This document shows, piece after piece, positions 1,319 through 24,209 of a stretch of 25,379 nucleotides of DNA (the first letter of the stretch is position 1; every line of letters starts with the position of its first letter). The stretch comes from a virus (lineage: Duplodnaviria > Caudoviricetes), in IMG/VR virus record IMGVR_UViG_3300024494_000023, positions 1-25,379 of that record, one strand, 5' to 3'. A program made the position numbers and the translations under genes. The notes below the pieces were generated by a model. That model had not been told where the DNA came from. It searched no databases and was given only the letters and a program-made list of their open reading frames with translations.

Positions 1319-1996
1319 TTAGTATCTTTCAACGAGAACAAACGATCTTACCGTGATGGGATCAGTGTTGGCGGCGCTTCCGTGGTGGAGCAACACATGC
1401 AAAACATTCGTTGAGGCCAACGTGTTCCAATTCATCACTGATGGAACGACGGTTGACACATATCCTGAAAATGGCCCAACAAACTGGTAATTGAAACCCT
1501 CGTTTTCCATGACGAATGTGATTGGAGTAGTGGCTTGCCAATAAGATGTGGCCGTCAACGCCCCAAACCCTGCAACCACCGTGCCATTAGTGGTGTCCGC
1601 CCGAAATTCCCACCACCAAACAGGCTGCGTCGTGATATTTGTTTTGGATGTCCTGTATCCACACAAAATCTGAGATTTCTCCGACATGAGCGGAGGAAGC
1701 GTGATCGAGGCGTAAATGTTTGTCTCCAGTGTGCTCGGCGTGCCGGTAAAGTAGTTAGATGCACCGACGTAAATCGTTCGGTAACGCGAGCCAACCGTCA
1801 CAAAGTCGCCAACGATGTTCGTCCCGAATACCGTGTTGGTGCTGAACGTGTTTGTTCCGCTGAAAACATTTGTCCCGCTCAACAGCGCCACGTTCGTCGA
1901 ACCTCCAGGAATTACAGTGCCGCTTGGACTTCCCGGTCCTACTGCTGCATTAACACAAGCAGCAGACAACAGTAACAAAATAAGTAGAGATTTCAT
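1319..1996 (-). CDS. Thr/Asn-rich beta protein with signal peptide (putative virion appendage or surface protein)
   Basis: ATG at 1996 abuts the upstream stop at 1998. MKSLLILLLLSAACVNA signal-like N-terminus and GTNxF repeats. Confidence 0.55.
   Translation of the reverse strand: MKSLLILLLLSAACVNAAVGPGSPSGTVIPGGSTNVALLSGTNVFSGTNTFSTNTVFGTNIVGDFVTVGSRYRTIYVGASNYFTGTPSTLETNIYASITLPPLMSEKSQILCGYRTSKTNITTQPVWWWEFRADTTNGTVVAGFGALTATSYWQATTPITFVMENEGFNYQFVGPFSGYVSTVVPSVMNWNTLASTNVLHVLLHHGSAANTDPITVRSFVLVERY
1571..1586 (-). promoter_or_regulatory. Candidate internal sigma54 promoter upstream of the lysis cassette
   Basis: TGGCACGGTGGTTGCA is a full GG-N10-GC consensus in sense orientation, but lies inside coding sequence. 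Confidence 0.4.
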
Positions 1997-4406: not shown

Positions 4407-4557
4407 AAACAGTTCGACTTTCTTCTATCTACTTATGCTGGGCGAGACAGAATTAAACCCAGATTGAATCGTTACCGTGATTCAAACAACGCGGGTTGCT
4501 GCCCTGCAACGAAACGTAGCAAATCCACTCGCTGCCCTGCGAACTGTTTAGTAGCAC
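4406..4557 (-). promoter_or_regulatory. Structured 5' leader of the capsid mRNA
   Basis: 11-bp inverted repeat 4406-4416/4540-4550, two hairpins with identical AGGGCA loops (4495-4510, 4529-4542) and a hairpin at 4464-4485. Confidence 0.6.
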
Positions 4558-4567
4558 CTGTAGCTAG

Positions 4568-4584
4568 AGCAATAGCCGTGCCAA
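4568..4584 (-). promoter_or_regulatory. Sigma54 (-24/-12) promoter for the capsid operon
   Basis: TTGGCACGGCTATTGCT matches YTGGCACG-N4-TTGCW exactly. Intergenic and in sense orientation. Confidence 0.8.
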
Positions 4585-6341: not shown

Positions 6342-8221
6342 GTCTGAGGTTGAGGTTGTTGAGGATTAAGGACAGCTTGAACTTGAGCCTGCAACTGCAT
6401 TAGTTGTTGCTTCTGCTCTGGCGGCAAAGCAGCAAGCTCTTCTGGTCGATTCATCACGAGGTTCTGTAGCAAGTCTGCACAGACAGCGAGAAGTTGTTTA
6501 GCATTCTGATCATCTTGGATTGCAGTAGCCCATTGATCGCCTCCTTCTGGAAAAGCCGTCATCAACATGCTCCGCAAGAACTGACCGGCGGCAGCAGTCT
6601 GTGAGATCACTGGCCAGAACTCCTGCATCTTACGCACACGTTCTGCCCGCTGCACAACATCCACATCGCCCGCAGCTTTCACGTAATACTCACGTCCGAT
6701 AAGGTCCTTATTGTTGGTCATCAAGCCAGTCGCTGGGTCTTGAATCTGCAAGAACTTAATCTTGTCCATCATCGCCAGACTTTGCACAATCATCCAACAA
6801 CGACGATATACAGCACACACCCAAGCCGAATACAATGTAACTTGCACACCACTCAGCAGACCAGCTTGTTGCGAAGCAGCTTGAATTTCTGTGGCAGTCT
6901 TACGAGAGTCTTTACGATTGTTGACAGCGAAATCAACCTGGCCATTCTCGTCAGCGTTTGAAGTATTGAACCATTGCAGAGCACTCAACACAACAGGGTT
7001 TGGATACTCGGAATGGAAGAAGTCAACAGGCTTGTCATACATTGCGCCATGCTGCAACTTCACCGGCAACTGCTTCGGCGGGGCCGATGATCCTTGTTGC
7101 AAGTCAGATTTCACTGCCGCATACACATTGCTCGCCCGCATCATGCCATTGATGAATCCAGATGCAATCGCAGTTTGAGCTTCCTGTGCATACTGATCCA
7201 TGAACACACGACCCTTCGTCGTAAAGATTTGTTGATTCTCTGTCTCGTGATAACGCAGAAGGTAGATTGGATACTGTGTTTCATCATCGTCTACGACGAC
7301 CTCCTTCTGAACAGGCTGCATCATTTGTGAAGGCAATCCAGTCATTGGATCAGTCATCACAGTCTCCTGCATCTCAGTCACAACTTCAATATGCTGCCTA
7401 CCTAAGTAGAGTTTCTCAGGCTTCTTGATCCAATCATTGCACGCACTTGTCGATCCAATCACTGTGCTCGAATCACAACGCCACGCAACATACACAACAC
7501 CATTCTCACGGAAAAAGCATTTCCAGACGCGATAGTTCTTCAGTCCAGCACGAGAAGAGTCTTTATCTGCTGAGATGAGCATCTCAACCTGTGCACCGTC
7601 AAAACCAAACTCAAGGACAAACTTCTTCAGTTGTTGTGCATTCAGATCGTAACCACGACAAACATAGGATGCCAACTGCAAATCAAGACACTCGATAGGG
7701 AACAACAACTTGTCATGACTGACATGCTCAATGCCGACATTCAATGGCTTTGTCTCATCGAGAACAACTTCAACGGAATCCCATCCGTGAGTCTGCGCTC
7801 CATCAGTAGCTTTGAACATCGGAATCTCCCATTCAGGAAATCGCATGCCCTCAGTAAACGCTTGTTCGAGGGCTTCTTCTCCTTTCTGTGCGGTATCCCA
7901 CATCCCGTGGCGTTCCCTAAAAATCAACGACCTGCGGGATTGTGTAAGGAATGCGATATACGACGGCTGCTCACGGCGTATGTTCTTATCTGCGACACGC
8001 TGCGGTGTGATGATTTCGTCATCCTTGATGACACCAGCAGAACGCATCTTCTTCACATCAATATCAATGTAACGCAAAGTCCGACGCACACGCGTCTGGA
8101 TGAACTCCCCATTCCAGTCTTTCAGAAGCTCCTCGAACTGCGTCGAAAAGAAAGCATAATCCGAATACGTCCTTTCGGCTGGTTCGGCGGGTGTTAGTTG
8201 TGGATCAATTACTGTAGTCAT
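6338..8221 (-). CDS. Portal protein
   Basis: 627 aa directly after TerL. KTATEI motif typical of podovirus-like portals and a Gln-rich C-terminal helix. Confidence 0.75.
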   Translation of the reverse strand: MTTVIDPQLTPAEPAERTYSDYAFFSTQFEELLKDWNGEFIQTRVRRTLRYIDIDVKKMRSAGVIKDDEIITPQRVADKNIRREQPSYIAFLTQSRRSLIFRERHGMWDTAQKGEEALEQAFTEGMRFPEWEIPMFKATDGAQTHGWDSVEVVLDETKPLNVGIEHVSHDKLLFPIECLDLQLASYVCRGYDLNAQQLKKFVLEFGFDGAQVEMLISADKDSSRAGLKNYRVWKCFFRENGVVYVAWRCDSSTVIGSTSACNDWIKKPEKLYLGRQHIEVVTEMQETVMTDPMTGLPSQMMQPVQKEVVVDDDETQYPIYLLRYHETENQQIFTTKGRVFMDQYAQEAQTAIASGFINGMMRASNVYAAVKSDLQQGSSAPPKQLPVKLQHGAMYDKPVDFFHSEYPNPVVLSALQWFNTSNADENGQVDFAVNNRKDSRKTATEIQAASQQAGLLSGVQVTLYSAWVCAVYRRCWMIVQSLAMMDKIKFLQIQDPATGLMTNNKDLIGREYYVKAAGDVDVVQRAERVRKMQEFWPVISQTAAAGQFLRSMLMTAFPEGGDQWATAIQDDQNAKQLLAVCADLLQNLVMNRPEELAALPPEQKQQLMQLQAQVQAVLNPQQPQPQT

Positions 8222-9989
8222 AAATTTCCTGAATTACGTTGACCAAATTCGGAGCTTGAGCCTCTTTAGGCTTTACAAACTCCGCAATGAAATCTGCTGA
8301 TTCTTTAGGTTTGCTTATTGTGAATTCGATAAGCTCCTTACTTGTCAAAGCATGAGATGCGCCTGTCACTTTTGTGGATTCTATGTCTACGACATCGCCT
8401 TTTGCAACAGCTTCTTGGAAGTTCTCGATTGTTAATCCTGTGAACGCAAGAACCATTGCATCTGCACGGTCAGGAGATTTATAGCCCTCAGATCGCATCT
8501 CCAATTTCGTTTGCATCCGAATCTTGCCGGTGCGCTTCGAGCGATCGTATTTACGAGTGGAGAGTTGTTCCACCAACAGATGATCTTCTTTCGGCAGAAT
8601 GAGGTAGCACTCTTCGACAAGACGAGCTATCAAGAACCACAGCTCAGTTCCACGGTTATCGAACTCTGCTGTATTATATGCACGAGCTTGATTCAGAACC
8701 CGATTGACATTGACCCAACCTTTGTCTCGCAAGAGAGGCCAGACAGCACGACCAACACCAGAATCGTCGATGTAGATATTTGTTGAATCGAGAGCGATTC
8801 CATGCTTCCTCAGGAATGTGTCGATTTCTGTCACGATAACTGTGATGTCATCTGAACAGAACGTATGCTGCGCAAGTCGTTTGTTTCCTTGCCAAAGCGA
8901 CAGGACACTTTCGTCTCCTCCTGTTGACATTGCGATATCGATTCCGACACGCTTCTGCCACCGCTTTCCAATCCAGCTAGTGGTTTTCTCAACACATTTA
9001 TTTACCCACAGTTGTGAGATAATAAATTGCCCGCCGAGTTGCGTGAATAATGCGAGATGCTTCGACCGGAATATTGCACTGTTCTCGCCGTAACGAAGTC
9101 GATCCTCTTCGATGTCTTTCGGGTTTTTGTGGGAGCAATCGTAAGACGTAACTCTCGTGAACTTGTAACCAAGCCGTTCATGATTCGTGCAGCTGTAATG
9201 GAAATGTCCAGTCGGCTCGCCGGGCGTAGAGACTTCTAGCCAGTAATTGTATCCTGTGCATCTCGTCAACGCTTCGAAGATTTCGTCATGAATCGACTTC
9301 GCCTCATTCGTTATCACAGCCATCTCAGACCACGATTCCAGTGGATGATAACCTTCTGCTTTACCAGGTTCATCCGTCGCAAACAATCGAACTTCACTTC
9401 CAGTGTCATTGCATTTAATGAAACGTTTGATAACTTTGAAGCACTCTCGCCCGACGAGCTTGTTAAATTTCAGCGCGAGAGCACTGATATAATTCTCCGT
9501 CTGCGCAGTTAGCTGCACACCGGATGACGACGTGATCACCGTCAACGCCCGCTTGCGCGTCAAACAAAACCAAACCACGAAGGGCGCAATAACAAACGCA
9601 TCTTTCCCTGATCCGTTACAAGCGCAAAGACAGAGTTTAAATGTGTCATGTTGCGTCGGTTTCGCAGACGCAATCTGGTGGCTAATGTTTAGTTGCCAGT
9701 TGTGGAGCGTTACTTCCGGATTGAAGAGTTGTGCTATTTCGGCGGGCTCGACAAAGTCGTAGACTTGAAGATCGGAGGCATCGACGATTGGATCAGCAGG
9801 AACTGATGACGGAGCGTCATCACGGCTAACGGCCGATTCGCCCGCTATAGCGGGTTGTTCTCTCTCATCACGTTCACGTTCACGCCTCTCCGCTCGACTT
9901 TCAACTCCACGAATAGCTGAATCGACGCAGCGATCCTCGTAGGATTCACTGCGTCTTTTCAACTCTTCTAATGCTTCCTCTGGTGTCAC
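8205..9989 (-). CDS. terL: Terminase large subunit
   Basis: Walker A CNGSGKD, EGYH, Walker B-like ITNEA, STPG, and RNase H-fold motifs GIDIA, IDDSGVG and SPDRADA. Confidence 0.9.
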   Translation of the reverse strand: MTPEEALEELKRRSESYEDRCVDSAIRGVESRAERRERERDEREQPAIAGESAVSRDDAPSSVPADPIVDASDLQVYDFVEPAEIAQLFNPEVTLHNWQLNISHQIASAKPTQHDTFKLCLCACNGSGKDAFVIAPFVVWFCLTRKRALTVITSSSGVQLTAQTENYISALALKFNKLVGRECFKVIKRFIKCNDTGSEVRLFATDEPGKAEGYHPLESWSEMAVITNEAKSIHDEIFEALTRCTGYNYWLEVSTPGEPTGHFHYSCTNHERLGYKFTRVTSYDCSHKNPKDIEEDRLRYGENSAIFRSKHLALFTQLGGQFIISQLWVNKCVEKTTSWIGKRWQKRVGIDIAMSTGGDESVLSLWQGNKRLAQHTFCSDDITVIVTEIDTFLRKHGIALDSTNIYIDDSGVGRAVWPLLRDKGWVNVNRVLNQARAYNTAEFDNRGTELWFLIARLVEECYLILPKEDHLLVEQLSTRKYDRSKRTGKIRMQTKLEMRSEGYKSPDRADAMVLAFTGLTIENFQEAVAKGDVVDIESTKVTGASHALTSKELIEFTISKPKESADFIAEFVKPKEAQAPNLVNVIQEIYDYSN

Positions 9990-10430: not shown

Positions 10431-10679
10431 TTATTCGTTACAGGCAATTCCAGCATTAGCCCACATGACAGCTTCTTGCAATTTGGTCAGAGCCAAAGAT
10501 TGTTCTCGACTTGGTTTCGAGTTTTGACAAATGAGAAGTGCAAAATTTCTTGCATTGTCTCGTAACGTAACGTATCTCGCTTGCTGTCCCTCTTTTGGAG
10601 GATGATACGAGAAACGATTGTTGATATCCGCCAAAAGCTTGGCGTCCATTGACTCTACTACAGTTGCTTTATCACTCAT
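10431..10679 (-). CDS. Acb2/Tad1-like helical hairpin protein (candidate anti-defence)
   Basis: FSYHPP...SREQSLALTKLQEAVMWANAGIA, recognised from memory as the family signature. Confidence 0.65.
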   Translation of the reverse strand: MSDKATVVESMDAKLLADINNRFSYHPPKEGQQARYVTLRDNARNFALLICQNSKPSREQSLALTKLQEAVMWANAGIACNE

Positions 10680-10690
10680 ATTTCATTCAG

Positions 10691-11197
10691 TTATTTCGCC
10701 AACACCATTTCCATTGCAGATTCACTTGCGGTGCTTTTCTCGCCCGCTGAAGCAGCCTTCACTTCACCCACATCAATCACACCGCCATTCATTCGCGATT
10801 TCGCCAGTTGTTCTCTGCTACGTCGCAAAGCTTCGTTTAATTGCAAAACGCCAATCCCAAGTTGCTGCATGTTTCGCAACCCTTTCACAGCCGCATCATT
10901 CCGTCCCTTATATTCATCCATGATGAATTTCGCAGCCCTAAATTTGACGCTCTCTTCTGGCGAATCCAGAAGTTGCTCCATCGTTTCTGCGGCCCGTTTT
11001 GCCACAGCGTTCTCGAAGAAATTCTTCTCCTCGACCTTGCCCTGCTTCAATTCAACACGATACGCGCAACTAGTCTGCGCCAACGACATGCGCACAGCAT
11101 CAGCATCAAGACCCATGTCATCGGCAATGTCCTGCACGGACATTTCCAAATCCTCGTATCTCGTCTTAATCTCTATGTCTGCTGCACTGTTTAGCAT
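10691..11197 (-). CDS. Putative terminase small subunit
   Basis: N-terminal HTH-like SVQDIADDMGLDADAVRMSL and helical oligomerisation-like region. Lies at the head of the packaging operon. Confidence 0.5.
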   Translation of the reverse strand: MLNSAADIEIKTRYEDLEMSVQDIADDMGLDADAVRMSLAQTSCAYRVELKQGKVEEKNFFENAVAKRAAETMEQLLDSPEESVKFRAAKFIMDEYKGRNDAAVKGLRNMQQLGIGVLQLNEALRRSREQLAKSRMNGGVIDVGEVKAASAGEKSTASESAMEMVLAK

Positions 11198-11313: not shown

Positions 11314-11330
11314 CGCAACATCTATGCCAG
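11314..11330 (-). promoter_or_regulatory. Sigma54 promoter for the terminase/portal operon
   Basis: CTGGCATAGATGTTGCG has GG-N10-GC spacing with TTGC. Intergenic, at the head of the late arm. Confidence 0.75.
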
Positions 11331-11521: not shown

Positions 11522-11746
11522 AACGCTACCAAGGAAAGTTAGGTGAGACTAACATTATTAGTGTGTGCTGAAAAGTGAGACGATTTCCTGAAAGGGGTGT
11601 CAGTTTGCTCTTTTCCAGCCCGCTACGGTTCGCGCGTCACGGCTTTGCCGTGTGTCAGCCGCCAGCCACTAGCCTTTTGTGTCGTCCGTAGGTATTGCTT
11701 CGCTTTCGTGTCTGGCATGGTGCCGGGTGCGATTATCAGTAACACT

Positions 11747-12627: not shown

Positions 12628-12837
12628 ATGGCTTCAAAACACTACACTCCAACAAAAAATTCGCGGGATTTGCGGCGGGCCGGGGACGAACTTCGAGCGG
12701 CGCGGCGCTCTTTTCGTGAGGCGACGTTTGGGCTTGCTCCGTCGAAACGCGAATCACGCGCGGGGCGCAGGGCTCGCAAGCAAGATATGCGCGAGTTTTG
12801 GCGCGTGAAGTTTCAGTATAATCCAGAAGTGCTATAA
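12628..12837 (+). CDS. Small Arg-rich protein
   Basis: MASKHY...RAARRSFRE...RAGRRARKQ, preceded by an A/C-rich leader like other genes in this arm. Confidence 0.55.
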   Translation: MASKHYTPTKNSRDLRRAGDELRAARRSFREATFGLAPSKRESRAGRRARKQDMREFWRVKFQYNPEVL

Positions 12838-12865
12838 TACTTAGGAATACGCGCAAGCTATTTTG

Positions 12866-12969: not shown

Positions 12970-13072
12970 AAGATGATGAGAGTGTGTATTGATTTGTGAG
13001 ATTGGTGTGAGCTTTGGCTAGTCTAGGAGTCCTAAACCCTAGAATGAGAAGTGCTAGAATGGCACTTGCAGA

Positions 13073-13234: not shown

Positions 13235-13250
13235 TGGCATGATGCCTGCA
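13235..13250 (+). promoter_or_regulatory. Candidate sigma54 promoter
   Basis: TGGCATGATGCCTGCA has GG-N10-GC spacing with one mismatch in the -12 box. Confidence 0.45.
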
Positions 13251-13688: not shown

Positions 13689-14249
13689 ATGCAAACCTTC
13701 CTCCCATATCCTGACTTTCGTGAATCTGCTCGTGTGCTTGACAACAAACGGTTAGGAAAGCAACGAGTCGAATGTTTGCAAATACTGCAAACGTTAGCGA
13801 AAGGGCCATATCAGAAGCGTATCTGTGATGCTTTAGGGTATGATGATGGATTTGCTCCTTGTAGCGACAAGGAGTTCGTTTCCCTACCAAAATACTATAA
13901 ACGCCGCACTCCATGGTATAATCATCCAGCATGCAGGATGTGGAGAGGTAAGGAGCACGCTTTAGCTTTATATGGCTGTCACATCTGTTTTGAATGGCGT
14001 AAGCGTGGATTTCAAGACAATGTCATACAGAAGATTTGTGGAATGATGCAGTGGACTAATAACCTTGAGATAGCTTTACGCACGCTTTCTTTTGATCCAC
14101 AATATCCAAAATACGATTATCCTTTGTGGCTCGGAAATAAAGAATTCCACGCCTCGCATCGGAGCAATTTGCTGCGCAAAGATTTCGCGTGGTATAATCA
14201 ATTTGGATGGACTGAGCCAACAACGTTAGAATACGTTTGGCCGGTTTAA
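13689..14249 (+). CDS. Pyrimidine-dimer DNA glycosylase/DenV-like protein (MSMEG_6728 family)
   Basis: MQTFLPYPDF...LDNKRLGKQRVECLQIL...HPACRMWRG...HASHRSNLLRKD signature. Confidence 0.85.
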   Translation: MQTFLPYPDFRESARVLDNKRLGKQRVECLQILQTLAKGPYQKRICDALGYDDGFAPCSDKEFVSLPKYYKRRTPWYNHPACRMWRGKEHALALYGCHICFEWRKRGFQDNVIQKICGMMQWTNNLEIALRTLSFDPQYPKYDYPLWLGNKEFHASHRSNLLRKDFAWYNQFGWTEPTTLEYVWPV

Positions 14250-14452: not shown

Positions 14453-14593
14453 TTAGAATGAGCGCGTGGCGGAATGTAAAGACGCAAGAAACAGCGTAAG
14501 CCATAGAATCACGATTGAAAAACATCGGTCAACCTATGCCGAAATGTTCTGACAATAGTCATGCAGGTTCAAATCCTGCCGCGCTCATTCTAA
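14453..14593 (+). ncRNA. tRNA-like RNA 1 with replaced anticodon arm
   Basis: Acceptor GAGCGCG/CGCGCTC extended to 14 bp, D arm TGGCGGAATGTAAAGACGC, variable arm GAC-AATA-GTC, T arm GCAGG-TTCAAAT-CCTGC. No canonical anticodon loop and no CCA. Confidence 0.75.
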
Positions 14594-14599
14594 TTCTTT

Positions 14600-14713
14600 T
14601 GTGAAACACAGTGGCGGAATTGGTAGACGCTAACTGTGTAAGAGAAACCTTAGCCAATGGCGAGGAAACGCAAAAATTTCTCATACAGGTTCAAATCCTG
14701 TCTGTGTTTCACA
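14600..14713 (+). ncRNA. tRNA-like RNA 2 with replaced anticodon arm
   Basis: Acceptor AACACAG/CTGTGTT extended to 12 bp, Leu-type D arm TGGCGGAATTGGTAGACGC, T arm ACAGG-TTCAAAT-CCTGT. No canonical anticodon loop and no CCA. Confidence 0.75.
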
Positions 14714-17272: not shown

Positions 17273-17423
17273 CTAACAAATCCTCTCACATCGCTGGCAT
17301 ACCACCAGCTAAGACTAATACTTGAGAATTTGAAGACATGTTATGTAGTTCTGGACGCTTGCATAACTGTCTTCTAACACAAACAAAACTAATAAGCGAC
17401 CAGAGATAAATGAAAGAACAACA

Positions 17424-17906
17424 ATGAGCGAAGCTACTAATACACAAACTCCTGCTGAAGCACAGTCTCCTGAGTCTGAAGTCAGCGATCCGTTTGCTGG
17501 ATTCCACGGCACTCGTAACGGTGTCAAGGTTCCTCTGCAACAGAAGTTCGTCCTCAAGGGAACGAACAAGGGCACGCCGTATGTCACGCTGAACTTCAAC
17601 GCGCTGGATGACAGTGCATTGATCACGGCTGCTGGCATTCCGCTTGTGCGAAACCTGATCGAAGCTCACTTCAATGTGGCTGGTCGTAATAACACTGAGA
17701 ACCTTCTCGGTGAGAAATACACCAGTCTCGAAGGGCTGGATATGGAGCAAGTGCAAGCGTGGGCGGATGGTATCGTCGAAGAGCGTGTGCCAACTTCTCA
17801 GTTGCGCAAGCGTTTCTTCGAGTTGATGATGAAGGCGACCACGACTCAGGAAGAGGACGAGGAAGCGTTCGAGATTCGTGCGGAGTTGCGCCGTCGGACG
17901 AAGTAG
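17424..17906 (+). CDS. Hypothetical protein
   Basis: 160 aa, A-rich leader, followed by a terminator-like hairpin. Confidence 0.7.
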   Translation: MSEATNTQTPAEAQSPESEVSDPFAGFHGTRNGVKVPLQQKFVLKGTNKGTPYVTLNFNALDDSALITAAGIPLVRNLIEAHFNVAGRNNTENLLGEKYTSLEGLDMEQVQAWADGIVEERVPTSQLRKRFFELMMKATTTQEEDEEAFEIRAELRRRTK

Positions 17907-17945
17907 AGTGTTACGATAACAATCACAAGTTGTTGAGTAATCGAG

Positions 17946-17990
17946 TGGCCGTTGGACTTCACAAGAGTTCAGCGGCCATTTCATTTACTT
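17946..17990 (+). terminator. Intrinsic terminator candidate
   Basis: 13-bp stem TGGCCGTTGGACT/AGTTCAGCGGCCA followed by TTTCATTT. Confidence 0.55.
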
Positions 17991-17996
17991 CACAGA

Positions 17997-18013
17997 TTGG
18001 CATGGCAAATGCT
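17997..18013 (+). promoter_or_regulatory. Candidate sigma54 promoter for the helicase-ligase-activator operon
   Basis: TTGGCATGGCAAATGCT has GG-N10-GC spacing. Intergenic, directly after a terminator and about 40 nt before the ATG at 18052. Confidence 0.6.
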
Positions 18014-18051: not shown

Positions 18052-18504
18052 ATGGAATCCAATACAGCTAATCAATCTATGTGTTCGGTGTCTATCAAAC
18101 TTCTGCTCGACTTGATGACGAGAGCAAACCCGATGAGCGAGCGAGAAGAAGTGGATGGTATGGATCACGAACTTGTTAGGTCGTTGCGTGATGCTGACCC
18201 AGACGAGTTACATCACGTCGTGCACGTGACAAAACGAGGAGTGATTTGTATCTATCGAAAGGCGGAGTGGCATCGTTCATTTGCGAAAACTCTCGCTGAT
18301 GAAGAACGCAAAGCGAAGTTGTTAGAAGATGAGCTAGCGTATCAACATGCGAAGAGTGTTGTGATGCAGTTCTTTCTTGAAGTATTTCCGGGAAATAAAG
18401 CGCAGGCTGAGAAGATGTTCATGCCGATGTGCAATAATCCGAAAGCTCTAATCGAGAAAGCTCGAAAGATTGAGATGGCTAAATTGATGGAGAAAGGATC
18501 GTGA
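18052..18504 (+). CDS. Hypothetical protein
   Basis: 150-aa ORF, first gene of the operon. Confidence 0.65.
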   Translation: MESNTANQSMCSVSIKLLLDLMTRANPMSEREEVDGMDHELVRSLRDADPDELHHVVHVTKRGVICIYRKAEWHRSFAKTLADEERKAKLLEDELAYQHAKSVVMQFFLEVFPGNKAQAEKMFMPMCNNPKALIEKARKIEMAKLMEKGS

Positions 18505-18510
18505 ATAATT

Positions 18511-18951
18511 ATGAGTGATGCAACATGGGAAGAGGAGTTCTATCCGATTGATGCGAGTGAGTGGAATGGTAATGCGAAAGATTCACTGCACAACCAGATA
18601 GGTGCAACGAAACACTCTCTGCAAAAGTGGAAGGGATTGCGAAAAGAGAATTTGGAGAAGCATAAACTAGAAGAAGCACCTATAAGTGTGTCTTCTTCCA
18701 CTTGTGCTCTGTGTCAACTTGCTGACATAGAAGACAGAGGAGACTGTGACACGTGTCCATTGTTTCGTTGTCGTGGTGATGTTAGTTGTGATAATGAAAC
18801 TGAAAATGAATGTCACAGTCCTTATCGTGCTTATGTTGACGATTCTCCATCCGATCCAGAACCAATGATCCGCGAACTCGAATGCACACTCGAAATGCTT
18901 GAGAAAGAATTGAAAGATGAGCAATCCAAATACTCCTCCGAAACCAAATAA
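18511..18951 (+). CDS. Cys-rich hypothetical protein
   Basis: CALC...CDTCPL...C motif set. Confidence 0.65.
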   Translation: MSDATWEEEFYPIDASEWNGNAKDSLHNQIGATKHSLQKWKGLRKENLEKHKLEEAPISVSSSTCALCQLADIEDRGDCDTCPLFRCRGDVSCDNETENECHSPYRAYVDDSPSDPEPMIRELECTLEMLEKELKDEQSKYSSETK

Positions 18952-19957
18952 ACCAGCAGGCTGGCACAGTCAACGCACGTTCGGAGCACAGACTGAAGCC
19001 GCCAAGTTAGCGTTCCTGCAAAAGCAATATGAGGGCACTGCACAACGAGTGCGCTTCATGCATAGGCTTGGCAAGGCGCAAGATTTATTCACAATCTGTG
19101 ACTCACTAGGTGTTGATAGAGCAGGGCGTGAGAACAGAATTGTAACGCATGATGAACTTACTGCACTAATCCTGCAAGGACGTGAGTTACTTAGTGCGAA
19201 ACCGAAAGTTGCAGAGCAACCAAAGGTTGTTGCGACTGAACAACCGAAGCCTGCTGAGGTCAAACCAACTGCACCTGCACCACCAGTAGCTCAGCCCACA
19301 GAAGAACACGTTGAGCAAGACATCGTTCTCGATCTTCCAGAACTAGAGAAGAATCCCAAGGTTATTCCATTCGGATTCCAGATTCGTAAAGCGAAAGAGC
19401 TTGTTCGTAATCTGCATGTGCATAAGCATCGTGCTAATCTTCTACTCGCAGGCACTGGATTTGGAAAGACTTACATCCTAAGTGCAGTGATCGCAGCACT
19501 CAAACGTGTAGGATACTTCGATGACTGCCGTTCAATGTGGCCAGTGTTGTATGTGACGAAGGCTTCGATTGTTGAGCAGACTGTTCGTGTGTTGAATGAT
19601 CAGTTCGGTGTGGATGAAGAGACATGCATGGTCACGAACATCGAGCAACTGCGGGCTAAGCTAGGCAAGATGTTCATTCATGAGCAGACTTGTGTAGTGA
19701 GTGGGCAGGAGCATACGATATTTACGTGGCGTCCACGTAACATTCCTCGTCTAGTGATTTGGGATGAGTCTCAAATTCTGAAAAATGTTGACTCAACTCA
19801 ATCGCGGATAGCTCAAGCATTGAATGACATAACGGAGTTGTCACACGGAGTGGAAGCGAATAAGGTGACGCAGATATTCTCTAGCGCGACTCCGTTTATG
19901 CGAGTGTGTGAAGCAAAGTGTTTCTGTGTAGCAACGCGGGCTGAGATGGGAGACTAG
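18917..19957 (+). CDS. SF2 helicase, N-terminal ATPase half
   Basis: Motif Q (FQ), I GTGFGKT, II IWDESQ and III SATP. Ends shortly after motif III. Confidence 0.85.
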   Translation: MSNPNTPPKPNKPAGWHSQRTFGAQTEAAKLAFLQKQYEGTAQRVRFMHRLGKAQDLFTICDSLGVDRAGRENRIVTHDELTALILQGRELLSAKPKVAEQPKVVATEQPKPAEVKPTAPAPPVAQPTEEHVEQDIVLDLPELEKNPKVIPFGFQIRKAKELVRNLHVHKHRANLLLAGTGFGKTYILSAVIAALKRVGYFDDCRSMWPVLYVTKASIVEQTVRVLNDQFGVDEETCMVTNIEQLRAKLGKMFIHEQTCVVSGQEHTIFTWRPRNIPRLVIWDESQILKNVDSTQSRIAQALNDITELSHGVEANKVTQIFSSATPFMRVCEAKCFCVATRAEMGD

Positions 19958-19963
19958 GAATTT

Positions 19964-20212
19964 ATGCCAAGAATACCACTACATCTACAAAAGAAGCGAG
20001 GACCGAAGCCTAAGCTGAAGATGTGTTATTGCGGTAGACCATTGTTTAGAATGAAGCACAACTGTCCTGTTTGTGAGGTGTGCGACAAGCTTGAGTCCGC
20101 TGGAGAACAGAAACGACACACGTCAGGCATACGTCGTCGTGTTGGATTACAACTTGCAGTAGAACCTTACGGTTGGTATGATGGTGGAGTGAATGGGAGA
20201 TATAATATATGA
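19964..20212 (+). CDS. Small basic zinc-finger-like protein between the helicase halves
   Basis: KKRGPKPK basic patch and CYC...CPVCEVC. Its stop overlaps the next start (ATGA). Confidence 0.6.
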   Translation: MPRIPLHLQKKRGPKPKLKMCYCGRPLFRMKHNCPVCEVCDKLESAGEQKRHTSGIRRRVGLQLAVEPYGWYDGGVNGRYNI

Positions 20213-21426
20213 AAGGTCACCTAACAAATGCAGTCTGGCCCACGTGGTCAGCAACAATCGCAGCGCCCGCAAGTGTGGACGAATACGACCCACCCGCGAT
20301 GGAGCGTTTAATCAAACTGATGAAGCCTTACATTATTGACATCAAGGGTGTCAAGGCTAAGTTCCCAGCACGCAATCGTGTCAAGCTCATTGAGTTTCGC
20401 ACGGACAAACAGCGTGAACAATACAAACTCACATGGGAGAAGTATGAACGTGAGATGGAATTGATTCGCGGCGGCATGAAAGAACTCGGTCGATTCCAAG
20501 AGCTTGTAGCGATGATGAAGTTCTCGCAGAGTGCAGAACTAATTCGTCACGAAGAGGTTGCTGACATGGCAGATGACATCTGCAAACGAGGCAAGGCTGC
20601 TGTCGTAGCATACAAGTTCAAGGAATCTATTGCTGCGACAATCAAAGTGCTGATGAACAAGCACGGATACAAACGCAATGACATCAGTATTATATGGGGT
20701 GGCATGGGAGGCATGTTCACGAGCGATGGCAAGGTGAAACTCAAGGAGAAGAAGATTCCTGAACGCACATTCAATCTGTTCCAGCCCGAAGACTTGGAGT
20801 TGTTCAAGTCGCTGAACGTGCGTCTTATAGTCACGTCGAACGAAGACGAGAACAAAGTCGTGAAGACTGTGGATTTGTCTCAAGAGATGGACGATCGTGA
20901 GAAGCTCACGAAAGCAGGACTGAAGTCTATCACTGCCGATGATCTTCAGAACATGAAGCTCGGAACGCAATCGAAGGCACAGCGTCAGGATGAGATTGAT
21001 AGATTCCAAGATGGCAAGAGTAAGATTTGTTTGTTCACATTCAAAGCTGGTGGTGTAGGCTTAAGCTTGCATCATTCGAAGCCTGAGTTGTTGCCACGTG
21101 AAAGTATCATTGCGCCATGCTACAGTGCGATTGAACTTGTGCAGGGTTTAGGAAGAGCACCACGACTTACGTCGCTGAGCGAGACAATTCAGACAATGAT
21201 CTTCTTCAAAGGAACAATAGAAGAACATATCGCTGACAAGGTGTCACAGAAGTTGCGCTGTCTTCGTGAAGTTGTGCGTCAACGTGAGTCATGGGAAGAT
21301 TGTATTGTCGAAGCGGCACAGACACATCGTGTGTCGTTTGATAGCAATGGCGAGAAGATAACGGAGATCGTCGATGACTCTGGTGGATCAGATGTGGATG
21401 AAGAGGAAGAGGAGGGAGAGGAATAA
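20209..21426 (+). CDS. SF2 helicase, C-terminal half
   Basis: RQDEIDRFQ, motif V AGGVGLSL, motif VI QGLGRAPR, GTIEE and an acidic tail. Confidence 0.85.
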   Translation: MKGHLTNAVWPTWSATIAAPASVDEYDPPAMERLIKLMKPYIIDIKGVKAKFPARNRVKLIEFRTDKQREQYKLTWEKYEREMELIRGGMKELGRFQELVAMMKFSQSAELIRHEEVADMADDICKRGKAAVVAYKFKESIAATIKVLMNKHGYKRNDISIIWGGMGGMFTSDGKVKLKEKKIPERTFNLFQPEDLELFKSLNVRLIVTSNEDENKVVKTVDLSQEMDDREKLTKAGLKSITADDLQNMKLGTQSKAQRQDEIDRFQDGKSKICLFTFKAGGVGLSLHHSKPELLPRESIIAPCYSAIELVQGLGRAPRLTSLSETIQTMIFFKGTIEEHIADKVSQKLRCLREVVRQRESWEDCIVEAAQTHRVSFDSNGEKITEIVDDSGGSDVDEEEEEGEE

Positions 21427-21429
21427 CAT

Positions 21430-22341
21430 ATGAACATCACACGACCAATGAGGGCAGTTACGATGTCATCGCTTGATGACATCAAGTTTCCTGTCTATGT
21501 TTCGTATAAGCTCGATGGCATACGTTGCATCAAAGTTGCAGGCAGAGCTTTGTCGAAGTCGATGAAGCCAATCGTTAACGCACAACTGCGTGCGTTGATT
21601 GAAGTGCCAGAGATTCCAGATGGATTTGATGGTGAACTGTGGGCTGAAGGAATGACGTTTCAAGAGATTGAATCCATCGTGATGACAGAGGATGCAGATG
21701 TGAAAGGATTGAAGTGGTATGTGTTTGATTGGGCTAGTCCTTTTCCTTTTGACTCTAGATACAGAGCCTTAATAGAAGAGATGCGAAGTGGTCATTGCTC
21801 ATCTACACAATGGATAGACTATATGAAATGTCTTCTGATCCATGACAAAAATGGATTGAAAGAGTCTTTTAATATATCGCTGTCTGTTGGAGGAGAAGGC
21901 CTCATCATCCGTAATCCTCACGCTCCATACAAATGTGGTCAATCCACAATGACGAAGCAAGAGCTAGTCAAATGGAAACCAATGGTAACTGGTAAAGCTA
22001 TTGTTCTGTGTGCAGTCGAAGAGATGAAGAACAACAATCCTGCATTCAACTCTGAACTTGGATTAGCGAAAAGGTCACACAAGAAAGTGAACAAGGTTCC
22101 TGCTGGCACACTGGGTTCGTTGCTAGTTCGTGACCTTGATTCAGGTATCGTCTTCAACATTGGAACAGGATTCGACGACGAACAAAAAGCTCTGCTGTGG
22201 GCTAGACGTGACACACTGTCTGGCACGATAGTCGAATACGAATCACAAAAGTGTGGAGTGAAAGAAGCGCCCCGCTGCCCTGTCTTCAAACGATTCCGTA
22301 ACAGAAACGATATATGCGCGTCATTGACCTCAGGAAAGTAA
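21430..22341 (+). CDS. ATP-dependent DNA ligase
   Basis: Motif I KLDGIR, FDGEL, YVFD, EGLIIR and LVKWK, then an OB domain with IGTGF and PRCPVF. Confidence 0.92.
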   Translation: MNITRPMRAVTMSSLDDIKFPVYVSYKLDGIRCIKVAGRALSKSMKPIVNAQLRALIEVPEIPDGFDGELWAEGMTFQEIESIVMTEDADVKGLKWYVFDWASPFPFDSRYRALIEEMRSGHCSSTQWIDYMKCLLIHDKNGLKESFNISLSVGGEGLIIRNPHAPYKCGQSTMTKQELVKWKPMVTGKAIVLCAVEEMKNNNPAFNSELGLAKRSHKKVNKVPAGTLGSLLVRDLDSGIVFNIGTGFDDEQKALLWARRDTLSGTIVEYESQKCGVKEAPRCPVFKRFRNRNDICASLTSGK

Positions 22342-22634
22342 GCATCGCCACCTCATGCTGGGAGAACAACTATGGCATGAGAGTTGAGAAGAAGCCAGAG
22401 CAGCCGACATTTCTTGGTGCTCGTATGCACGAGAAGCGTCCACTACAACAAGCAGACACATGGACATTCTGTGTGATCTTCGAGTTTGGTTCACGAAGGA
22501 CAGAAACATTCTACGGAACGCGCGCTATCAGTCTTTGGTCCGCATGGAAAGCAAAACAATTCGGAGAAAGTCAACCACGTCGCAAACAACCACGTCAATC
22601 ACTTAAACATAAGCAACAGCTAGAACTCCTATGA
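22314..22634 (+). CDS. Hypothetical protein
   Basis: 106 aa, overlapping both neighbours. Confidence 0.55.
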   Translation: MRVIDLRKVSIATSCWENNYGMRVEKKPEQPTFLGARMHEKRPLQQADTWTFCVIFEFGSRRTETFYGTRAISLWSAWKAKQFGESQPRRKQPRQSLKHKQQLELL

Positions 22635-23509
22635 CACCAGAACAAAAAGCAGAAGAGATGCGCAAGTTCAGAGAGCAACTTCGTGCATCATCCGGTAAAG
22701 AACGTATCAACATCTTCAAGGCTGCCAATGTTATCAATGAACATGAGGCCCGCAAGATGACCTTGCAAATCCCGAAGGCTCCGCCTGCTCCTGCAACTGT
22801 GCAGCCCGGTCAGCCTTCAATGACATGGCTTGACAGATTCATCACACAAGACCCTGCTCTAGTTGAGATGAAAGAACATGTCAAGAAACTTGCACCATTG
22901 CAACATCCTGTTCTCATTCATGGTGAGAGCGGAACGGGTAAAGAACTCATTGCCCGCGCTATGCATAATACACGACATGGCAAGTTCGTCGCTGTGAACT
23001 GCGCTGCTATCAGTGAGAATCTCATCGAGTCTGAACTGTTCGGTCATGCCAAGGGTTCATTCACTGGTGCTTACACTGATAAGATAGGATTGCTTCAAGA
23101 TGCGCGCGATGGCACAATCTTCCTTGATGAGATTGGCGACTTGCCGAAAGCAATGCAACCAAAGTTATTGCGAGCTATTCAGAACAAGACAGTTCGTCGT
23201 GTTGGTTCAACACAAGACGAAGAGATTTCCTGTCGATTCATTAGTGCTACACACAAACATCTGTGGACTGCCGTCAATGATGGTGAGTTCCGTATGGATT
23301 TGTATTTCCGTCTTGCTGTGTTCGAAGTAGAAATCAAACCAATGCGTGAGCGTTGTCTCGAAGATTTCATCCTACTTGCAAAGGCTTATGGTGGAACAGA
23401 AGAGGATGCTCAATATTTGCATGACAATCGAGCACAACTGAGAGGTAACATTCGACAAATGCAGCACTGGTTTCTACGTAAGCAAGTGCTCGGTATCAAT
23501 TCATTGTGA
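22631..23509 (+). CDS. Sigma54-interacting AAA+ activator (bEBP) lacking HTH and sensor domains
   Basis: Walker A GESGTGKE, FVAVNCAA, ESELFGH-x-KGSFTGA, Walker B FLDEIG, QPKLLR, FRMDLYFRL and GNIRQ. The protein ends 16 aa after GNIRQ. Confidence 0.93.
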   Translation: MTPEQKAEEMRKFREQLRASSGKERINIFKAANVINEHEARKMTLQIPKAPPAPATVQPGQPSMTWLDRFITQDPALVEMKEHVKKLAPLQHPVLIHGESGTGKELIARAMHNTRHGKFVAVNCAAISENLIESELFGHAKGSFTGAYTDKIGLLQDARDGTIFLDEIGDLPKAMQPKLLRAIQNKTVRRVGSTQDEEISCRFISATHKHLWTAVNDGEFRMDLYFRLAVFEVEIKPMRERCLEDFILLAKAYGGTEEDAQYLHDNRAQLRGNIRQMQHWFLRKQVLGINSL

Positions 23510-23529
23510 TATATGAACACATATCAATG

Positions 23530-23545
23530 TGGCATACAACTTGCT
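23530..23545 (+). promoter_or_regulatory. Sigma54 promoter downstream of the activator gene
   Basis: TGGCATACAACTTGCT is a full consensus match in the gap between the activator stop and the ATG at 23562. Confidence 0.7.
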
Positions 23546-23561
23546 AATAAGGATTTACGAT

Positions 23562-24209
23562 ATGAGTGATGCTATTACTACAACGTCCTTCTTAGACGGC
23601 AACCTTCCAGAGGATAAACAGAGAGGAACAATAACGCCCAAGCCTCATAATCGGGAGCGATACACTGGCGGCACACGTCCTACATATTACAAGGCAGAGT
23701 ATGGTCGTGCGATTCTTCCTCATCTTGTGAAGATGATTGAGAAGAAGACTGATATTGAATTCGCCCCCACTCATGGTGAAAAGTTGACGACGGTTTATCA
23801 GCGTGTGCAACAGTCGTTCACTTACGCTGTGGATAATCTCGATGTCGGAGGTCAACTGGAATCTCTTCGTGCGAAAGTTGTCTTGCGAAAGACACCGAGG
23901 GCTATCGTGTTGTGTTTCAAAGAGAATGCGATGAACTATGGGCGACAACAATCTGTGTTGCGTGAAGCTCTTGTGCGTCATGATGCGTTCGCAGTTCGTG
24001 ATGTTGTCACTGTTGAGTGGCGACCAATGCTGAACACGTTCATGGAGAACAGTGACAAGAAGGAGTTGAAGATTACGGATGGGATTTTTCTTGCGCCTGA
24101 GGATCAAGAGACTGTGAAAGCTCTTGTTGCGTCTGCGGAGATGATGAATGATCCGATGGAACTTGTGACGTTAGATGCTTACGTGCTGCATATTAGGAGG
24201 AAGTCGTAA
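23562..24209 (+). CDS. Hypothetical protein
   Basis: Likely start MSDAIT at 23562, since the GTG at 23529 overlaps the promoter motif. Confidence 0.65.
   Translation: MSDAITTTSFLDGNLPEDKQRGTITPKPHNRERYTGGTRPTYYKAEYGRAILPHLVKMIEKKTDIEFAPTHGEKLTTVYQRVQQSFTYAVDNLDVGGQLESLRAKVVLRKTPRAIVLCFKENAMNYGRQQSVLREALVRHDAFAVRDVVTVEWRPMLNTFMENSDKKELKITDGIFLAPEDQETVKALVASAEMMNDPMELVTLDAYVLHIRRKS

Follow-up and report, generated by a model that had tools for sequence, protein, structure and literature searches.

Phages are known to govern their middle and late genes through RNA polymerases of their own, sigma-70-family factors, activators and antiterminators. Sigma-54 holoenzyme forms a closed complex that persists until ATP is hydrolysed by a bEBP. 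Among the bEBPs, the group 5 members FlgR of Helicobacter and CtcC of Chlamydia possess no DNA-binding domain and act independently of enhancers (Table 1 of PMC7175178), and FleT of Rhodobacter sphaeroides is described in the available text of PMC7175178 and PMC3162934 as devoid of both the regulatory and the DNA-binding domain. DctD250, which consists of the AAA+ domain only, needs no enhancer to activate a variety of sigma-54 promoters, its activity being about 10-fold lower than that of the cognate enhancer-bound activator (PMC3844500, available text). On the phage side, promoter P015 of Pseudomonas phage YuA has been assigned to sigma-54 (10.1101/2023.10.13.562163). Htm (Gp204) of Mosigvirus AV110, a phage AAA+ protein with a bEBP-like structure and no HTH, is hypothesised to act on sigma-54 polymerase and is reported to reshape host transcription, as far as the available text goes (10.64898/2026.10.06.757011).

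The phage genome studied here encodes a protein of this kind and carries sites resembling sigma-54 promoters. In our reading, to which we assign a probability of about 0.8, the phage activator would open complexes of host sigma-54 RNA polymerase at -24/-12 sites ahead of middle and late operons, probably needing no enhancer to do so. The window, i.e. the whole analysed stretch of 25,379 nt, is contained in a 48,330-bp record that is 99% complete (G001). The genome has two arms. The + strand arm begins at about position 11,600 of the window and comprises small genes, a split helicase, an ATP-dependent ligase, the activator and a PD-(D/E)XK nuclease; outside the window it continues with a Sak4-like protein, parts of a DNA polymerase and a primase. 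The other arm leads from a probable small terminase via an Acb2/Tad1-like gene and the large terminase to a putative portal, scaffold and major capsid protein. The last three labels were deduced from position, size and conservation and have no library match; for the putative capsid gene, Pfam, PHROG and GenBank phages yielded none. A scan of the window ORFs together with another 15 ORF segments of G001 detected neither an RNA polymerase nor a sigma factor, and no sigma-54 domain was found in G001. Coordinates are collected in Table 1.

Some traits of the gene content are recorded for completeness. The helicase is present as two ORFs (window 18917-19957 and 20209-21426, +) with an 82-aa ORF between them, and many relatives have a single ORF of 714-774 aa; the DNA polymerase is likewise distributed over two or three ORFs (517, 180 and 342 aa; G001 43531-46796, L005). 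The late arm ends with a 2432-aa ORF (G001 34412-41710, L005) that has no PHROG match and is likely an ejected virion protein. The Acb2/Tad1-like anti-defence gene (window 10431-10679, -; PF24729, E 1e-18), situated between the small and the large terminase, occurs in only 3 of 28 records. A pyrimidine dimer DNA glycosylase-like gene (window 13689-14249, +) matches PF03013 with E 1e-21. Two tRNA-like elements (window 14453-14593 and 14606-14712, +) have D-arm-like and T-arm-like repeats in common; the first is closed by a perfect 14-bp inverted repeat, and neither is matched by ARAGORN or Rfam.

Table 1. Features discussed in the text. Positions refer to the window unless a locus is named.
Feature	Position	Strand	Remarks
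Doubtful promoter inside 236-aa ORF 1319-2029, 322 nt before holin-like gene	1572..1586	-	exact consensus match
Putative major capsid protein, 433 aa	3105..4406	-	conserved in 22/23 clade records
Tandem RNA hairpins with AGGGCA loops, each preceded by UGCU	4495..4556	-	starts at predicted +2 of capsid transcript
-24/-12 site before putative major capsid gene	4569..4583	-	exact; predicted +1 4557
Large terminase	8205..9989	-	phrog_2, E 3e-25
Probable small terminase, first gene past 11315 site	10691..11197	-	phrog_2538, E 0.008 (weak); homologue in 21 records
-24/-12 site heading late arm (small terminase, Acb2-like gene, large terminase, putative portal, scaffold)	11315..11329	-	exact; predicted +1 11303
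Candidate extended -10 early promoter TGCTATAAT	12830..12838	+	near copy 13052-13060; weak family-wide support
Weaker -24/-12 candidate, early arm	13235..13249	+	15.3 bits; exact TGGCAY-N6-TGC
-24/-12 site before 160-aa gene 17424-17906	17295..17309	+	15.2 bits; predicted +1 17321
Terminator-like hairpin directly before 17998 site	17943..17981	+	17-pair stem, T-rich tail, -28.3 kcal/mol
-24/-12 site heading 18052-23509 cluster (split helicase, ligase, activator)	17998..18012	+	19.5 bits; predicted +1 18024
Putative minimal sigma-54 activator (bEBP AAA+ domain, shortened lid, ~65-aa helical N-terminus), 292 aa	22631..23509	+	PF00158
-24/-12 site 20 nt past activator stop, facing replication operon	23530..23544	+	exact; 21.6 bits; predicted +1 23556
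215-aa protein, first gene past 23530 site	23562..24209	+	homologue in 22/23 clade records
Phage sigma-54, example	L365:3387-4676	+	
Phage sigma-54, example	L361:15469-16764	-	

The activator matches PF00158 with an E-value of 1.2e-62 (residues 71-233) and carries Walker A GESGTGKE (98-105), N123, the loop GSFTGA (142-147), Walker B FLDE (164-167), R221/R227 and GNIR (272-275). We take N123 to be the switch asparagine, R221 and R227 the arginine fingers and R275 the sensor II arginine. The motifs agree with the GK(D/E) rule for the Walker A of bEBPs (PMC7175178, section 4), and serine at position 2 of the GAFTGA loop is a listed natural variant in the available text of PMC7175178 and PMC3162934. 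Walker A GKE/D, N123, G(S/A)FTGA, Walker B DE, R227 and R275 are shared by 21/21 aligned clade members, R221 by 18. The protein ends only 17 residues past R275, and neither in it nor across the 21 clade members did Pfam report an HTH_8, receiver or lid family match. Its predicted structure (mean pLDDT 90) comprises three N-terminal helices (3-45), a low-confidence Pro-rich linker (51-60) and the AAA+ fold; superposition with the AAA+ domain of FleQ gives a target TM of 0.82 and an rmsd of 1.8, the lid being shortened, a trait that we count against sigma-54 activation. A preliminary description of this DNA, made from its letters, had seen a bEBP AAA+ protein with all catalytic motifs including GSFTGA, without HTH and with a helical, Pro-rich N-terminus of about 65 aa; Pfam, alignment and model bear this out.

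With its PF00158 domain and clade-6 AAA+ fold, L1 loop and catalytic residues the protein belongs among the AAA+ domains of bEBPs. It lacks the C-terminal Fis-type HTH of the canonical NtrC/PspF-type members (groups 1-4) and, having three short helices at its N-terminus, also the receiver of group 5; in architecture only, it resembles FleT (type Ic) in that regulatory and DNA-binding domains are both absent. As a bEBP it would form hexamers, hydrolyse ATP and remodel sigma-54 holoenzyme. The gene is under purifying selection (dN 0.16 versus dS 1.48 against the 78%-identical gene of G002). The N-terminus varies within the clade and is nearly missing in G018-G020. In a quick tree of 84 AAA+ cores, which did not include FleT, a branch with SH-aLRT 99 groups 21 of 22 phage proteins with 19 short metagenomic homologues, the activator of G022 forming a long branch outside this grouping.

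The motif TGGCAY-N5-TTGC occurs four times in the window, each time in the sense of the next gene, versus a mean of 0.22 and a maximum of 1 in dinucleotide shuffles, none of 100 of which reached four; the looser TGGCAY-N6-TGC occurs six times (0.58 expected). No further exact match was found in G001 outside the window. These are the four sites of the preliminary description, whose estimate of about 0.1 expected occurrences was slightly low and whose manual list missed three + strand sites, 17998-18012, 17295-17309 and 13235-13249. It had placed three of the four between genes at operon heads, which holds for 11315 and 23530; the third, 4569-4583, lies inside the late cluster, between putative scaffold and capsid. 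The 23530 site faces the genes for the nuclease, annealing protein, DNA polymerase and primase. A counterpart of the 17998-18012 site is present in G002, and in 8/8 homologues of the 17424 gene a site is located 99-175 nt ahead of the gene. Since sites head the terminase, helicase-ligase-activator and replication operons, the predicted regulon is middle plus late and not late-only. Packaging and capsid genes, named as targets from the start, retain conserved sites; the replication and activator-cluster sites go beyond the late genes proposed, and the suggested extension to lysis found no support. The site at 1572-1586, tried as a conserved lysis promoter, scores below 10 bits with the family matrix, is absent in G002 and has in G003 only a weak match inside an unrelated gene. 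As the 17998 site heads the activator's own cluster after a terminator-like hairpin, the programme would feed back on the activator.

Conservation across relatives argues for a promoter function. In 37 activator-bearing records the strict pattern matched 82 times, versus 11 matches with a reversed control. A site before the capsid gene is found in 20/22 genomes with at most one mismatch and in the other two with two mismatches; corresponding sites precede the scaffold gene in 1/22, the portal gene in 0/21 and the large terminase gene (terL) in 0/19. Among 79 capsid-selected loci, which include near-duplicates (one further locus was too short), TGGCAY-N7-GC lies within 400 nt upstream in 72, never antisense and never within the gene. 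After pruning by hand to 52 loci, TGGCAY is present in 50 and GC stands at the sigma-54 offset in 49 of these 50, at any other offset in at most one. The preliminary description had suggested a matrix scan of relatives for co-occurrence of activator and -24/-12 motif, and the outcome is affirmative: a matrix derived from 35 other loci gave 147 matches in the 23 clade genomes versus 24.4 in shuffled sequence (107 intergenic, 27 sense within ORFs, 13 antisense). The two Akkermansia phages with the nearest GenBank terminases had 0 and 1 matrix matches. Downstream of the activator, a site lies within 400 nt in 19/23 genomes and in 12/23 scorable cases among 30 further loci. The small-terminase gene (terS) has one within 500 nt in 10/21 genomes and within 3 kb in 16/21, and a divergent site marks the start of the other arm in 5/7. 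The 400 nt ahead of the activator ORF are free of such sites in all genomes (0/23). In G009, G010, G018 and G020 the late-arm site precedes an ORF of 1052-1173 aa placed ahead of the small terminase.

The sites show the TGGCAC-like -24 and TGC -12 elements of sigma-54 promoters in sense orientation upstream of gene starts, and their bipartite GG-N10-GC arrangement with fixed spacing equals the published sigma-54 consensus (PMC12316311, available text). They likely act as sigma-54 promoters, with transcription predicted to start about 12 nt past the GC. Several observations count against such a programme: the site downstream of the activator is missing in 4/23 and 11/23 cases, G022 combines its long-branch activator with only two matrix matches, and one subclade (7/79 loci: L204, L208, L210-L213 and L234) has lost the capsid site while keeping leader hairpins and activator. 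The expectation that relatives with the ATPase keep the motifs thus stands for the capsid site in 72/79 loci and fails in this subclade, though its genomes still have three or four sites each elsewhere.

Within an uncultured clade of tailed phages with genomes of about 50 kb, the activator belongs to the core genes. An activator-based scan yielded 106 viral loci; from the best 80 of these 106, 28 records were fetched, 23 of which contain the clade core genes and underlie the family counts. Left out were G023, G024, G028, G029 and G030, which encode long bEBPs of 412-532 aa and none of the core genes. Of these five, G023, G028 and G030 are unrelated viral or proviral records whose bEBPs of 498-519 aa, presumably RtcR-like, are each accompanied by a sigma-54 site just downstream. 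When records were selected by capsid instead, a PF00158 domain was present in 38/41, and in 35/35 of those at least 90% complete; selection by terminase gave 13/15 and, for near-complete records, 7/7, one of them also in the capsid-selected set. The capsid alignment was built from activator-positive genomes, and the counts therefore show fixation within the clade and not a contrast with a sister group; no activator-less sister clade was found among the capsid (best 80 of 107) or terminase (best 80 of 201) matches on which these selections drew. GenBank records labelled phage gave 66 bEBP matches, none covering 80%, and the 60 listed look like host-derived contigs. One 41-kb GenBank record labelled phage contains an unannotated bEBP match (L392, MT121960.1 22580-23197) that could be viral or host.

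One branch of the clade encodes sigma-54 itself, and this strengthens the core inference. PF04552 is matched at about E 1e-51 in 6/45 clade genomes (G049, G050, G052, G053, G054 and G070), and PF00309, PF04963 and PF04552 are all over the cut-off in the three tested (G049, G050 and G054). In the four cases examined, the ORFs have 429-431 aa and lie just upstream of the helicase-activator cluster. A viral scan for this protein found 16 loci, and in 15/15 with upstream DNA a sense -24/-12 site stands 48-60 nt before the start codon, with no antisense match. At least 120 related database clusters of any origin exist, the best 120 being 72-99% identical and residing on contigs of up to 74 kb. GenBank phage records contain sigma-54 matches at 26-36% only, which look host-derived. 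In the available text of PMC7693777 a Pectobacterium phage protein is called a putative sigma-54 from an HHpred match at E 0.67. Capsid sites of the sigma-54 branch have A at -14 in 5/5 cases versus 2/48 others; because the sister genome G051, without sigma-54, has A as well, this may reflect lineage and not specificity.

How the activator reaches its promoters can be judged from the capsid sites. Within 250 nt upstream of 50 such sites no common 7-mer occurred in more than 11/50 and no spaced palindrome in more than 4/50; many of the sites lie only 5-14 nt past the scaffold stop codon, and HTH_8 was not found anywhere in five genomes scanned. These features and the analogy with DctD250 suggest that activation probably takes place without an enhancer, from solution. 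FleT needs a partner, FleQ, and a partner is therefore possible for the phage activator also. An arrangement of this type, in which promoters and activator stay as described and a separate protein, for instance the 215-aa neighbour or a host bEBP in a hetero-oligomer, tethers or gates the ATPase, we regard as unlikely. It would fit the presence of the 215-aa gene near the activator in 22/23 clade records and the weak winged-helix likeness of its N-terminal part (Z 5.1); the variable helical N-terminus of the activator could bind a partner, and an enhancer-bound activator is about 10-fold stronger than a free one (PMC3844500, available text). Yet Z-scores under 8 are common by chance, no family or fold could be assigned to the 215-aa protein (best Z 5.9), the activator's N-terminus is dispensed with almost entirely in three genomes, and the 50 capsid sites offer no conserved upstream element and frequently leave few nucleotides after the preceding stop codon.

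We give still less credence to the notion that host bEBPs fire the phage promoters, or that sigma-54 closed complexes serve as repressors or roadblocks, with the phage ATPase mainly reprogramming or titrating host sigma-54 transcription. Phage YuA, with a sigma-54-like promoter (10.1101/2023.10.13.562163, available text) and no bEBP match in our GenBank search, sets a precedent for the former, and the host effect reported for Htm (10.64898/2026.10.06.757011, available text) for the latter. However, the sites lie in sense orientation between genes, at gene heads and behind a terminator, and no enhancer that a host bEBP could use is apparent. Activator gene and sites also co-occur throughout the clade, one branch of which has a sigma-54 gene of its own immediately ahead of the helicase-activator cluster. 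That some other DNA-binding protein of the phage uses the motif as its operator, the ATPase serving replication or packaging and the sigma-54 resemblance being incidental, is hardly credible to us: the ATPase gene does lie among replication genes and the promoter role of the sites is read from sequence, but a bipartite, non-palindromic motif of fixed spacing identical to the published consensus (PMC12316311, available text) is not what such an operator predicts, nor are an invariant GxFTGA loop and phage sigma-54 genes behind the same motif.

The capsid transcript begins with a conspicuous leader. All eight stem pairs of its hairpins covary, with changes on both sides and 100% pairing, in 12 hand-picked aligned leaders, and 28 of 32 genome-wide matches to the hairpin pattern fall into capsid leaders; Rfam has no match. 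The upstream UGCU can pair with the AGGGCA loop, and the variants TGAC/GTCA and GGCT/AGCC fit a pseudoknot, these columns hardly varying in the aligned set. Units of pseudoknot type number 73 versus 27 in reverse complements and 6-15 in shuffles, and formation of pseudoknots is thus possible. In 19/50 leaders the first unit begins at predicted +1 to +5, a position that indirectly supports the predicted start site. An interpretation as CsrA site or boxA/boxB, judged against consensus sequences, was set aside given a loop without GGA and the lack of an Rfam match. Some capsid leaders (L203, L224, L231 and L237) end with a terminator-like hairpin followed by a T run.

The early trigger is a weak point of the model: sigma-70 -35/-10 matches are not enriched in the early arm (22 forward, 20 reverse, 18 shuffled), and extended -10 elements gave 7 versus 1 with a strict and 41 versus 25 with a relaxed pattern. 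Regarding the host, the best GenBank matches of the large terminase are Akkermansia phages (28-31%), which weakly points to phages of Verrucomicrobiota. One capsid contig was binned in a MAG named 'Proteobacteria bacterium' that has rpoN, but the contigs concerned are short phage fragments (8.0 and 1.5 kb). Use of host sigma-54 by the branch without its own sigma-54 gene is assumed.

In the mechanism that we put forward, the first activator would be made by the host housekeeping polymerase or with the help of a host bEBP. Accumulating activator would oligomerise and fire the 17295 and 17998 sites, which would transcribe its own gene in a positive feedback; the sites at 23530 (replication), 11315-11329 (packaging) and 4569-4583 (boosting capsid expression) would then follow, late timing resulting from activator level and genome copy number. 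As a side effect, host sigma-54 genes would be switched on. On a broader view, the clade would run nearly all of its post-entry transcription as a self-amplifying sigma-54 circuit, which one branch would have completed with a sigma-54 of its own, borrowing only core polymerase and possibly shifting its -12 preference; we consider this probable, if with clearly less assurance than the opening of host complexes as such.

If true, phages would have one more fundamental way of controlling their genes, next to polymerases of their own, sigma-70-family factors and antiterminators. The clade to whose core genes the activator belongs is widespread, the sites predict start positions exactly enough for testing, and reporter constructs in E. 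coli would allow the system to be studied without growing the phage. Hosts of the clade are predicted to encode sigma-54, and loss of rpoN should confer resistance except to the branch with its own sigma-54. Furthermore, both the natural HTH-less, lid-shortened activators and the phage sigma-54 proteins might be developed into minimal or orthogonal expression tools.

The components are familiar from bacteria, and their use as a phage programme appears undescribed: our literature search, whose coverage left out most subscription papers, found no phage with a GAFTGA-type activator and a sigma-54 regulon of its own. Late transcription of T4 depends on the sigma factor gp55 and the clamp gp45 (PMC2988020, available text). 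These are a sigma-70-family factor and a sliding clamp, not sigma-54 and an ATP-driven bEBP. What the two systems would have in common is that the phage itself supplies the means to activate a closed polymerase complex at genes expressed after the early ones. For YuA, the available text of 10.1101/2023.10.13.562163 reports one promoter and no phage activator, and none turned up in the GenBank phage search; this differs from a genome-wide regulon. Htm has, according to the available text of 10.64898/2026.10.06.757011, no GAFTGA loop and DD in Walker B and is treated as a host modulator, phage sigma-54 promoters not being described. The preliminary description had likened the phage protein to FlgR and CtcC, a comparison that is apt for the missing HTH and not for the receiver, which both proteins keep under kinase control (PMC7175178, available text) and which has no match in 21 phage members. 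FleT and the engineered DctD250 are closer. Like the phage activator, FleT consists of the AAA+ activator domain only, without receiver or HTH (PMC7175178, PMC3162934, available text); it is a cellular flagellar regulator, whereas the phage activator has a shortened lid, forms its own branch in the quick tree without FleT and finds its putative sites on its own genome. With DctD250 it shares the isolated AAA+ domain, which in DctD250 activates without an enhancer (PMC3844500, available text) and in the phage is inferred to do so. DctD250 is a laboratory truncation, and the phage family looks like its natural counterpart.
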